A stretch of 64,000 nucleotides of DNA from Nitrospirota bacterium (lineage in GTDB: Bacteria; Nitrospirota; Nitrospiria; Nitrospirales; Nitrospiraceae), in the NCBI GenBank assembly GCA_963701855.1, contig CAVPBK010000006.1, positions 736,001 to 800,000 of the forward strand, in the 5' to 3' direction. Of the stretch, positions 14,755 to 20,828 are shown piece by piece. Numbering within the stretch: position 1 is the first letter of the stretch; every line of letters starts with the position of its first letter. Below the pieces are notes generated by a model. It was not told the origin of the DNA, made no database searches, and saw nothing but the letters and a program-made list of their open reading frames with translations. Both the position numbers and the translations under genes were made by a program.

Positions 14755-15507
14755 TCATCCAGCGGCGGCCACTTTCTCCATCACCTCGTCGGAAATATCG
14801 AAATTCGCGTGAATCTTCTGCACATCGTCATGCTCGTCCAACACTTCCATCAACTTGAGCATTTGTTCGGCTGCCTTTTCCTCTAGCCTGATCGTGTTCT
14901 GCGGAACAGCTGTGACCTCCGCAAGTACCGTGTCGATCTTCGCATCGGCGAGGGCTTTCTTCACAGCTTCAAACTGGTGCGGGTCCGTGATGACCTCAAA
15001 ACTTTTCTCCCCCACCTTCACGTCCTCCGCTCCTGCATCCAGCGCGAGGGACAGCAGCGTATCTTCGTCAACTCTACCCTTCTCAATCGTCAGCAATCCC
15101 TTCTTGTGAAACTGCCAGGAGACAGCGCCGGCTTCCGCCATGTTGCCGTGATTCTTCGTGAGGAGATTTCGTAGCTCGGCAACAGTGCGGTTGCGGTTAT
15201 CGCTCGTGATTTCCATCAAGATGCCGGTCCCGCCGGGCCCGTACGCTTCCAAACTGAACTCCTCATACACCAAGCCGGGCAATTCTCCCGTGCCGCGCTG
15301 AATGGCTTTTTTCAGCGTATCGCCAGGCATGTTGGCCTCTTTGGCCTTCAAGATGGCCAGCCGGAGCCGTGGATTACCGTCTGGATCTGCGCCTGAGCGA
15401 GCCGCAATCGCTACTTCACGGATAATTCTGGTAAAAATCTTCCCGCGCTTGACGTCCTGAGCGCCTTTATGCCGCTTAACTGTTGCCCAATGGCTATGCC
15501 CACCCAT
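14755..15507 (-). CDS. yebC: YebC/PmpR family protein
   Basis: MGGHSHWATVKRHK, NPRLR, YGPGG, SDNRNRT. Confidence 0.95.
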   Translation of the reverse strand: MGGHSHWATVKRHKGAQDVKRGKIFTRIIREVAIAARSGADPDGNPRLRLAILKAKEANMPGDTLKKAIQRGTGELPGLVYEEFSLEAYGPGGTGILMEITSDNRNRTVAELRNLLTKNHGNMAEAGAVSWQFHKKGLLTIEKGRVDEDTLLSLALDAGAEDVKVGEKSFEVITDPHQFEAVKKALADAKIDTVLAEVTAVPQNTIRLEEKAAEQMLKLMEVLDEHDDVQKIHANFDISDEVMEKVAAAG

Positions 15508-18529: not shown

Positions 18530-18596
18530 GCCTAACGTTTGAGGTGAGCCGCAGCGCCACCCTGACGGCGACGTCGACTGGAGCGATTTGTTATGT
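18530..18596 (-). other. integron attC site (cassette 2)
   Basis: Minus strand ACATAAC-aaatcgctccagtcgac...gcggctcacctcaaac-GTTAGGC; AAC...GTT cores with an imperfect internal palindrome, 67 bp. Confidence 0.9.
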
Positions 18597-18620
18597 TCAC
18601 ACATGAAATTCACTCCTTCC

Positions 18621-19499
18621 TTACACCCGAAGTGGTATCTCAGATGTAAGCACTTCAATATCTCCATATCCATGCTCGGAGAGCATAAGCTCAAGTGATC
18701 GAGTCTCAGAATCGGGATCTCTACATGGACCGATCATGATTGATTGTATGGGAAGCTTTCCTTTCTGAAGGAATCCGATCTCGACGTATGGAGTCAGACC
18801 AAATCGTCCCATTCGGTACTTTGCGTCCAGCGAGAGAGTTGAAGTGGCAGGCTGGTAGATCTGTCGGTATTCGTTCTCCTCTTCAAAGGCGGAATGCTTG
18901 ATGATACAGGCTACGTTGTTGAAGATGCCCTCCAACATCCCCATGAGATAACCAACCTCAACTTCCCCAAAGTCCTGGTCGCCAAGATATTTGTTAACGC
19001 GTGCTAACAACAGTGAAAGAACCGATTCGGCAGTAGTCTTGGAGTAGATAACCTTCTCTAGCAGAGGCATTCGACCATCTATCGTGGCCATCTCGCTTGT
19101 CTTGAGCCCAATACAGTAGCCAGTTCCTGTCCCGGAGTACGCGCGCCATTGGCTAAGCACATCTGCGGTGGCAGAGTAGCATGCGATAAAGGTATCGACA
19201 GATCGGAGCTGAGAGATTGCTTTGTTGATAATTGCTTTAGATGCTCGTTGAAGGTTAGCTCCAATAAAGTTTGTGACAAAAGATACGCCTATTTCGTACT
19301 CCATTGCGTCGTTTAGACGAGACACATGCGTCGCCCAAATTCGCCCGGAGGCAATCATGCCGATTAGTGCGCGTACATCCGTGTAATGATATATGACCTT
19401 CGGTGGGTTCTCAGAAATCAACTTGGCGAGCTCTTGTCGGACCGATTCCGACCATTCATTCATGATCGCAATTCGGCCTTCGTACTCAGCGTGATCCAT
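18621..19499 (-). CDS. DUF2971 domain protein (integron cassette)
   Basis: YHYTD, LNDAME, LSQWRAYS, KHSAFEEENEYR, IMIGP; appears lower in GC than its neighbours. Confidence 0.8.
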   Translation of the reverse strand: MDHAEYEGRIAIMNEWSESVRQELAKLISENPPKVIYHYTDVRALIGMIASGRIWATHVSRLNDAMEYEIGVSFVTNFIGANLQRASKAIINKAISQLRSVDTFIACYSATADVLSQWRAYSGTGTGYCIGLKTSEMATIDGRMPLLEKVIYSKTTAESVLSLLLARVNKYLGDQDFGEVEVGYLMGMLEGIFNNVACIIKHSAFEEENEYRQIYQPATSTLSLDAKYRMGRFGLTPYVEIGFLQKGKLPIQSIMIGPCRDPDSETRSLELMLSEHGYGDIEVLTSEIPLRV

Positions 19500-19523
19500 C
19501 GCTACGTAGCTCGCCCAAAGTGA

Positions 19524-19595
19524 ACATAACGTCGTCGCTCACCGGCGCCGAGGCGCGCTAGCGCCGAAGGCGTCCGGTGCAGCGGCTGGTTAGCT
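19524..19595 (-). other. integron attC site (cassette 1)
   Basis: Minus strand AGCTAAC-cagccgctgcaccggacgcc...ggcgccggtgagcgacgac-GTTATGT, 72 bp; the upstream stop codon lies in the inverse core. Confidence 0.9.
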
Positions 19596-20523
19596 GCCAT
19601 AGTTTGCGATCCCAAACGGCACATGGACACATGGGGTTGAAGCGGATGCGGGCTTGAGGTGACCAATCTGGTCATCGAAGAAAAATGTGTGGCTTGAGTA
19701 CGTCAAGCACCAGTTTCTTTTCAATCCCACCAAGCAAAAACAGCTCATCCGCATCGATACCAGCACTTGAGAGGGTTTTGATGAGCCGTTCATGCGCTGG
19801 GGCATTTCTGGCAGTAACAATCGCGATTCGCAGCATTTGCGTGTACTGGGCCATGTTCTGAGCTTTCTGCCTTTCGAGCTTCTGAAACTCAGAGATCTTT
19901 AGTAGCAGAGGCATGAGCGGACCGGCTTGCAAGGGCTTGTCCTTGAACTTCTTCTCGTGTTCGTGAAAAAGGTCCAGGTTCCCTGTGTCTTTATAAACTA
20001 CTTCAGCCTCGTCACCTGCAATAACTCCATCGAAGTCGAACGCTATTCGCAGTTGCTTGTCTTCATCGGTCGGAATTGTTTCGCAGGGAAGCACATAGCC
20101 CGCGGGAAAGCCGCTCTGGACGGCTGTGGCAACTTCATCCTTGTTTGTGCTGAGGTAAAGAACCGCACCGACCGATTGCATGTATGGATACGGAACCTGA
20201 CCTGCGAGAAAGAACGATCGAGAAATCTCGAGTTCGTAGTGAGCAACTGCATCCATTACGCGAAGCCCAGCATCGGCATGATTTCTGGACAGAATGACGA
20301 CTTCGATTGGATGTTCGTCTTTATAAATTCTGTTGAGGTGAAGTAACCGCTGAATGAACGGGAACGCAGCGCCGCGTTTCGGAACATCTTTTCTGTGTTC
20401 TCGTTGATACGCGCGAAAATCGTCCACTCCAAGCTTCAAGTAGAGATCGTGTTCAGCCGCCAAATCGAAAAGCGCTGTTGATGAGACAGCGACGACCAGC
20501 TTCCTTTCGATTGGGAATGGCAC
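19590..20523 (-). CDS. 5'-nucleotidase family protein (PF06189-like; integron cassette; apparent +1 frameshift in T-run near 19683)
   Basis: KLVVAVSSTALFDL, LRIAFDFDGVI, VTARNAPAHER, then KPHIFFDDQ..H...HVPFG after frame correction. Confidence 0.85.
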
Positions 20524-20533
20524 GTGCTATGGC

Positions 20534-20595
20534 AGCTAACAATGATTAGGCGGACCTGCATAAGCTGCAGATGTCCGATTTCCTATCCGTCTAAC
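20534..20595 (-). other. putative integron attI site
   Basis: Minus strand CCGCCTAAT-CATT-GTTAGCT with an upstream GTTAGAC direct repeat; no attC-like palindrome. Confidence 0.7.
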
Positions 20596-20717
20596 ACGCT
20601 ATCGATTCTCTTGAAAAGTACGCGATAATCCCTGCGATCTCGGTCAGTTACTGACCATGTTGCGGTTTATCACGGCATCTTATGCGGATCGGCATAATAC
20701 ACCCTTCTTGGATGAGT

Positions 20718-20828
20718 TAACAGCCGGTCCAGCAGACTACGAACGCCCGCCGGTACACGGTTGAGCACATAGGTATAGATCTTCGTCGTCCTCACGTCAC
20801 TGCACCCGAGCAACTCCTAGATCGTGCG
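20718..20828 (-). pseudogene. intI: integron integrase C-terminal remnant
   Basis: Translates RTI*ELLGCSDVRTTKIYTYVLNRVPAGVRSLLDRL, matching the IntI C-terminus (RTVQELLGHSDVxTTMIYTHVLNRGxxGVRSPLD); in-frame stop and His->Cys change. Confidence 0.85.

Follow-up and report, generated by a model that had tools for sequence, protein, structure and literature searches.

A probable decayed chromosomal integron of the co-oriented type between cysN and mrp in a Nitrospira genome

In a working integron the integrase IntI acts on circular cassettes, recombining the attC site, folded from the bottom strand, with attI at G|TT; the cassettes are thereby stacked head to tail behind attI. Here we analysed an element built from such parts that lies between cysN and mrp in a Nitrospira genome (Nitrospirota bacterium, GenBank assembly GCA_963701855.1). 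It was found in a stretch of 64,000 nucleotides (contig CAVPBK010000006.1, positions 736,001 to 800,000), called the window below, whose coordinates carry the prefix w. The closest described systems are of several kinds. Integrons of the Treponema denticola type carry all of their parts (intI, attI and cassettes) on a single strand, and intI points towards attI with its 3′ end, as reported in the available text of PMC3607928. Clusters of attC sites lacking integrases (CALIN) were as common as integrons in the survey of Cury et al. (2016, PMC4889954), whose accessible portion gives intI remnants near 15 of 279 CALIN. About a third of the intI genes were pseudogenes in one survey (Nemergut et al. 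2008, PMC2426708), according to the part of that article available to us. For the host group, the portion of the IntegronFinder 2.0 preprint at hand (10.1101/2022.02.28.482270) lists two CALIN in Candidatus Nitrospira inopinata and a phylum without a complete integron. A literature search on integrons in Nitrospira and Nitrospirota, covering articles but not their supplements, returned nothing more specific than this preprint.

On the minus strand the locus reads cysN/C, a miniature inverted-repeat transposable element (MITE), an intI remnant, attI, cassette 1 with attC1, cassette 2 with attC2, and mrp. The element is very probably a decayed chromosomal integron, in all likelihood one from an integrase clade whose intI lies on the cassette strand and reads towards attI. 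The original prediction had named an attI, two attC sites and two cassettes on the minus strand, and all of these were located:

w20721 to w20828, minus strand: intI remnant, the last 36 codons, identified by the TIGR02249 profile, tblastn and DNA identity
w20533 to w20720, minus strand: attI region with the crossover G|TT at w20540|20539, identified by homology in seven loci
w19530 to w20539, minus strand: cassette 1 (1010 bp) with a gene of the PF06189 5′-nucleotidase family (gene w20523–19672, Pfam E 9e-100)
w19524 to w19596, minus strand: attC1, consisting of R″ CAGCTAAC, a 5-nt spacer, L″ GCT[G]CACCGG[A]CGCC, L′ GGCGCCGGTGAGC, a 6-nt spacer and R′ GTTATGT
w18536 to w19529, minus strand: cassette 2 (994 bp) encoding a DUF2971 protein of 292 aa (frame intact, w19499–18621; PF11185, E 1.7e-9)
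w18530 to w18598, minus strand: attC2, degenerate, consisting of R″ GAACATAAC, a 5-nt spacer, L″ GCT[C]CAGTCG[A]CG, a poorly matching L′, a 6-nt spacer and R′ GTTAGGC (w18536–18530)

In what follows, relatives' genomes are designated G with a number, G000 being the window's own genome, and loci fetched from genomes are designated L.

The integrase remnant was recognized from a short recombinase-like open frame at w20813–20670. Reading the frame of this stub through an in-frame TAG (as X) gave a 77-residue query for the family scan. It scored 38.5 bits against the integron integrase family TIGR02249 (E 8e-10, profile positions 280–315 of 315) and 26.5 bits against NF011946, compared with 15.6–19.2 bits for XerC, XerD and generic recombinase models. 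These scores agree with the earlier reading of the stub as intI, and they place it outside the Xer and phage type. A Pfam scan reported no Phage_integrase match for the stub. When the full-length IntI of G004 (407 aa) was used in tblastn, it produced a single match in the window, comprising residues 372–405 at w20828–20727 with 70.6% identity. At the DNA level the stub and the 3′ end of the full-length G004 intI shared 76.6% identity over 154 nt. Its identity to IntI C-termini from 80+ loci ranged from 60 to 77%, and no significant match was obtained with the other tyrosine recombinases of its own genome (best E 0.89).

Three defects were apparent in the remnant. An in-frame TAG occupies w20819–20817, where relatives have CAG; the motif LLGH reads LLGC, exchanging a histidine that we take to be catalytic for cysteine; and the ancestral stop is replaced by TTA at w20720–18, the frame continuing to w20670. 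With 38.5 bits against a TIGR02249 curated cut-off of 265, and with the in-frame TAG, the stub does not represent the functional IntI of a complete integron. A box-II-like ‘HTCR’ stretch just upstream of the stub could be taken for part of intI. We rejected this reading (‘HTCRPS’), which by alignment is not integrase but the 75-nt tail of the long form of the MITE. The remnant is accordingly shorter than it first appears, and because the ‘HTCR’ stretch belongs to the MITE, about 9% of intI remains.

The attI region is a non-coding stretch that ends in the crossover GTTAGCTG at w20540–20533. We aligned it in seven Nitrospira loci including the window, four of which lie behind a full-length intI; the sequences agree as far as GTTAG, and with the following base all relationship ends. 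Downstream of the intI stop codon of G004 come 170 nt ending in ...CCGCCTAAACATTGTTAG, where the first cassette begins, and the attC inverse core of this cassette (ATCTAAC) is complementary to the cassette start. Since the window sequence is conserved with such working-looking elements, its attI and crossover point could be identified by homology. As in a complete integron, attI adjoins intI and the first cassette is joined at G|TT. Among the seven aligned copies that of the window had the most substitutions. An orphan attI-like site was noted elsewhere in the same genome (C6:634627-634699; L150 1501-1573, minus strand). It is 79% identical to the G004 attI core and ends in ...ATAGTTAGCC, and no attC match lies within 1.5 kb of it; in the 500 bases read we noticed no remnant of an integrase.

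For the attC sites we built a covariance model from other genomes. Searching 85 species-level genomes of the genus with the profile TIGR02249 gave six loci over the curated cut-off and four partial matches, and these loci were used to find seed attC hairpins. A heuristic hairpin scanner served only for picking the seeds, being strand-symmetric and producing many false positives within genes at weak thresholds; it missed attC2. A MAFFT alignment of ten sites of unequal length was discarded with its 3′ arms misaligned, and six sites of similar length were aligned instead, all from other Nitrospira genomes and from loci other than cysN–mrp. Of the 16 pairs in the model, the R box accounts for four and the L box for nine, which are interrupted by one unpaired base; three more follow a second unpaired base. 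It was searched against the entire 64 kb on both strands with filters off.

Both sites were scored by this model, as had been predicted of an attC covariance model. attC1 matched at w19595–19524 with 49.8 bits (E 8e-10) over the full model length and with 16/16 modelled pairs standard; its hairpin folded with −23 to −25 kcal/mol (z about −2). It follows the genus pattern R″-5 nt-GCT[N]NNNNNN[A]...-6 nt-R′, with both unpaired bases placed as in the seed sites. attC2 matched at w18596–18530 with 27.4 bits (E 2e-4), also over the full model length, and with 13/16 pairs standard. The next-best match in the window had 11.2 bits (E 1.9), leaving attC1 and attC2, both on the minus strand, as the only significant ones. 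The two sites therefore have the R″-L″...L′-R′ imperfect palindrome with unpaired bases on the cassette strand that characterizes attC, the second in degenerate form: its 5′ arm conforms to the genus pattern and its 3′ arm pairs badly. The 3′ two thirds of attC2 are 93.5% identical to the terminal attC of G015, a well-folding site of 42.8 bits. Applied to 80 loci encoding relatives of the Nitrospira IntI, the model gave 72 matches in 33 loci, from Planctomycetota to Pseudomonas. These 72 attC-like sites lie next to IntI genes from many phyla, so the model has not been tailored to the window locus.

Each cassette start was expected to be complementary to the inverse core of its own attC, and the complementarity is exact. 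The attC1 inverse core CAGCTAAC (w19596–19589) is the complement of the start of cassette 1 in 8/8 bases, and the start of cassette 2, GTTATGTTC (w19530–19522), is complementary to GAACATAAC (w18598–18590) in attC2 in 9/9 bases. Beyond the fixed GTT/AAC this amounts to 5 + 6 bases, for which we calculate a chance probability of about 4^-11. The same relationship was observed in G005 (10/10 bases) and G004 (7/7). Both units thus have the form of circularisable cassettes.

The cargo of the two cassettes consists of genes from families listed as candidate anti-phage genes, although the function of these genes in the cassettes is putative. The cassette 1 protein matched the PADLOC candidate defence family PDC-S08 with 357 bits (E 1.6e-107), and that of cassette 2 matched the PADLOC candidate family PDC-S31 weakly (32.5 bits). 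In cassette 1 the main frame covers PF06189 profile positions 1–275 of 302, with the last 47 profile positions in another frame. The shift, of one base in a run of T, occurs near w19680, 27 codons short of the gene end, and the shifted frame stops with TAA at w19592–19590, within the attC1 inverse core. Together with two in mrp (w18379 and w18102), this makes three single-T insertions within 2.9 kb, whereas the other genes of the window are mostly full length. The insertions are either real decay or a local assembly error. A search of sequencing runs for reads of the strain found no run with more than 34% of the sampled words.

Elsewhere in the window, adjoining overlapping frames at w58127–59079 and w56125–57019 may be more split genes (in the second of two frames a C-terminus of DUF1731 type; also TPR/DUF4034), which bears on the indel error rate of the assembly.

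These results establish the identity and order of the parts, their layout, the truncation of intI and the homology with intact elements. Several observations weigh against the interpretation as a decayed integron. The stub scores far under the family cut-off, and the stretch of the gene for the IntI-specific additional domain is absent from it. The attC calls rest on our own model with six seed sites, not on that of IntegronFinder. attC2 folds no better than shuffled sequence (z +0.3), has 3/16 non-standard pairs, and was missing from the nine matches obtained at E 0.01 when the whole 4.3-Mb genome was searched. Both attC sites originally proposed are scored by the model, attC2 lacking a fold signal and lying above E 0.01 genome-wide. 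In the G004 locus (L043) an attC-like match of 27.7 bits (15393-15471) lies beyond the 5′ side of intI, off the simple layout. The cassette 1 frameshift may be an assembly error, given that three single-base insertions cluster in 2.9 kb. Finally, none of the ten Nitrospira loci with long intI matches lies at cysN–mrp.

The 5′ break of intI adjoins a MITE, and conserved genes flank the element on either side:

w20829 to w21030, minus strand: MITE, long form, with a 125-nt core (w21030–20904), a 75-nt tail and the terminal inverted repeats CAGGATGCTGAAAAAG / CTTTTTGAGCATCCTG
w21027 to w22877, minus strand: cysN/cysC fusion gene, a 616-aa open frame; conserved upstream flank
w17496 to w18418, minus strand: mrp/apbC-type Fe-S carrier gene; the conserved flank downstream, with two frameshifts in the assembly

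The repeat has the properties of a MITE in being short, non-coding and present in many copies, with 16-nt inverted ends on a 125-nt core. Six full or partial copies are found in the window (among them w21030–20904, w17485–17361, w60817–60940, w33347–33422 and w22954–22882), and copies are numerous throughout the genus. Alignment with six long-form copies from four genomes placed the end of the long form at about w20828 ± 5 nt. The proposal that this is a decaying sedentary integron whose 5′ intI was lost near a MITE fits these data, with a remnant of 36 codons whose break adjoins the repeat; that the MITE caused the deletion is conjecture. The genus is very rich in two MITE families, of which the first has the short (125 nt) and long (200 nt) forms. 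A MITE of the second type (L012, L030-L031) adjoins the intI stub in G005, and different species have different MITEs at different truncation points of this same gene.

The name cysN/C was read from the translation, without a family-library scan; the 3′ end of the gene is 83–94% identical in relatives and marks the equivalent locus in them. In mrp the NF041136 and PF10609 matches are divided between two frames. Its two single-T insertions, at w18379 and w18102 on the minus strand, are absent from 4/4 relatives, and the gene is broken into three frames. Two mrp paralogues elsewhere in the genome have 40–44% identity to it. A sigma-70 promoter scan found nothing promoter-like in the attI region (one site in 2.7 kb, 2.3 being expected by chance). 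A separate region at w49200–54544 contains transposase fragments (HTH_Tnp_1; rve integrase core with HTH_21) beside unannotated frames; it is an insertion-sequence region with no relation to the integron.

In the window the stub, attI and both cassettes are co-oriented on the minus strand, and the 3′ end of intI faces attI, confirming the orientation originally described. We compared this layout with those of full-length elements. Full-length intI was present in 6/85 of the species-level Nitrospira genomes (TIGR02249 over the curated cut-off), the window's own genome not being among them. In 5/6 of these loci (G004, G038, G057, G043 and G089) attC lies on the intI strand, 3′ of the gene. G086 (L048 3636-9716) has the classical divergent layout, with intI on the plus strand and five attC matches upstream on the minus strand. 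Both layouts are therefore present in Nitrospira. Among the 80 loci of wider relatives, the 33 with attC matches comprised 20 co-oriented, 13 classical and no mixed cases; many of these loci included one flank only, and absence on the other side was not always tested.

The closest relatives of the Nitrospira IntI are co-oriented. With the stub itself as tblastn query, the five best matches came from co-oriented loci, as did 11 of the 17 best, the other six being loci without an assigned layout; over the 36–52 residues compared, IntI from classical loci scored nearly as well. The co-oriented layout is usual for this integrase clade, a property of the lineage and not peculiar to the locus. The original prediction had cited inverted integrases as known in a minority of lineages such as Treponema. 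For Treponema this is borne out by the accessible text of PMC3607928; the layout is no oddity of the window locus, as 5/6 Nitrospira loci and 20/33 related loci have it.

The cysN–mrp interval was then compared in relatives, and, as anticipated, homologous stubs, attI sites and other cassettes were found there:

G015: MITE–stub junction and terminal attC remnant as in the window, separated by 1.5 kb of unrelated DNA
G005: a stub shorter than that of the window and truncated by another MITE, followed by attI and a single cassette whose attC (47.3 bits) is a textbook example
G018: a partial attI immediately adjoining a MITE, the only integron part kept, and beyond it 1.9 kb of other DNA
G011: roughly 700 bp together with a stretch resembling attI, the only integron part kept
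G014: a small insert, in which an attC-like hairpin was seen by eye but not reported by the model
G017: 6.6 kb (L023 917-7376) with three large co-oriented frames and an attC-like site (38.3 bits) after them
G013, G003, G016 and G001: 130–370 bp only, mostly MITE, with no integron parts

The three frames of G017 encode 650, 786 and 840 aa, two of them with PLD-like nuclease and SNF2/helicase domains; as a ‘cassette’ this insert would be unusually large and defence-like. Homology of the window to G005, G018, G014, G015 and G017 resumes at or before w18537, one base ahead of GTTAGGC. The cysN–mrp interval is a variable spot bounded by integron crossover points, and the integrase is dead or absent in every copy examined. 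A tblastn search with full-length IntI against 11 cysN–mrp loci of relatives detected remnants in G005 and G015 only, besides that of the window. Within the fetched range of the ten long-intI loci mentioned above there was no cysN, mrp or either cassette, and no intact version of the locus was found. Because no long-intI locus lies at cysN–mrp, the case for vertical inheritance at this site is drawn from decayed copies only. Descent from one ancestral integron at the site appears likely on this comparison.

Of intI only the last 36 codons are left, and the remnant has a stop codon and a substitution. In its own genome no integron integrase scored over the cut-off (best 80.8 bits against 265), and none was found at E 1e-30. 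Given a genome without an integron integrase, the cassettes are unable to move on their own; both would be fixed in place unless an integrase came in trans. With such help, attI and attC1 look as if they could be used, and attC2 would be doubtful.

Outside the window the same genome has further attC-model matches of 23.5–40.7 bits, three at C6:859862-861159 and two at C13:80065-81557. Others are at C14:43157-43253 (one), C14:91324-91586 (two) and C6:175491-175548 (one). These are more integrase-less cassette clusters.

The most serious alternative is that the platform is still in use, its attI and attC sites being recombined by an integrase supplied in trans, from an incoming element or other cells, so that the cysN–mrp cargo turns over. 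We regard this as possible but rather doubtful. It would account for the comparison of G000 with G015, which have the MITE–stub junction and the 3′ part of the terminal attC in common, with flanks 93–94% identical, and for which the 1.5–2.2 kb between the shared junction and the attC part are unrelated. The cargo at cysN–mrp differed in every relative examined, same-clade full-length IntI occurs in five other Nitrospira genomes, and the genome has the further attC clusters lacking integrase just described. On the other side, the genome itself has no integron integrase, its attI at this locus is the most diverged of seven, and attC2 is degenerate. Homologous recombination between the conserved flanks, or the loss of different parts of a larger ancestral array, could also produce differing cargo. 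Past w20756 the G015 stub is divergent, and an attI homologue was not found there; replacement by recombination would fit this too.

The broader idea that cysN–mrp is a cassette hot spot across a Nitrospira subclade, with cargo exchanged even after the death of the resident integrase, is speculative and on balance improbable; the G000/G015 comparison hints at such exchange between dead platforms through integrases in trans. Defence-like cargo recurs at the site, with the PDC-S08 and PDC-S31 candidates in the window and the PLD nuclease and SNF2 helicase in G017. If true, integrase-less platforms would be shared docking sites, served in trans by integrases passing through the population.

Highly improbable is a CALIN that arose by secondary-site insertion beside an unrelated Xer or phage integrase remnant. 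Clusters of attC without integrase are common, only 15 of 279 lying near an intI pseudogene in the accessible portion of the survey cited above (PMC4889954), and several others exist in this genome. Against this origin, integron-integrase models give the fragment twice the score that Xer models do, and its DNA is 76.6% identical to the end of a full-length intI. Behind it lies the conserved attI that also follows intI in four full-length elements, and cassette 1 starts exactly at the attI GTT. A chimeric contig joining an integron fragment to cysN and mrp, at which the clustered single-base insertions and the flanking MITE repeats might hint, is scarcely credible in view of the same order in independent assemblies of other species (cysN, MITE, stub, cargo and mrp in G015; MITE, attI, cargo and mrp in G018; stub, attI, cassette and mrp on a short G005 contig).

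As a decayed integron, the element offers a documented example of integron death in a nitrifier genus, in which truncation next to a MITE preceded a slow decay of attI and attC. The comparative data add Nitrospira genomes with full-length integrons of the co-oriented clade and one chromosomal site at which several species have versions that decayed in different ways. The genes carried as cargo are from candidate phage-defence families. The understanding of integrons is unchanged; the data are of use for annotation and for the study of cassette turnover where a resident integrase is lacking.

Compared with the described systems, the locus shares with the Treponema denticola type the order and orientation set out at the beginning. 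Treponema IntI proteins are relatives of the Nitrospira IntI (50–61% identity), and Treponema locus L090 likewise has an attC match on the intI strand, 3′ of the gene. The window differs from this type in an integrase reduced to 36 codons, the Nitrospira host, the two-cassette array and the cysN–mrp site. The integrase-less attC clusters of N. inopinata come from the same genus, as listed in the accessible portion of 10.1101/2022.02.28.482270; this likeness is one of kind. Relative to that report, we found full-length intI in 6/85 genomes of the genus, and an intI remnant and attI at the window locus. That intI can decay through a stop codon, a frameshift or a large deletion is known from the pseudogenes and ‘pseudo-integrons’ described in the available part of PMC2426708. 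The decay in the window is extreme by comparison, with 9% of the gene left and a break that adjoins a MITE.

The definition of a CALIN calls for two or more attC sites, separated by less than 4 kb, and for the absence of an integron integrase nearby. By our own model the two attC sites of the window are 1.07 kb apart. An IntI over the cut-off is missing from both window and genome, as is any working intI, and a C-terminal intI remnant lies within 1.2 kb. IntegronFinder thresholds are not the basis of this class assignment, and the window differs from a CALIN in that its attI is still identifiable by homology, which makes the element a truncated integron and not an orphan array. It is a CALIN with an intI pseudogene, an ordinary decayed integron whose kind and mode of decay are well known.

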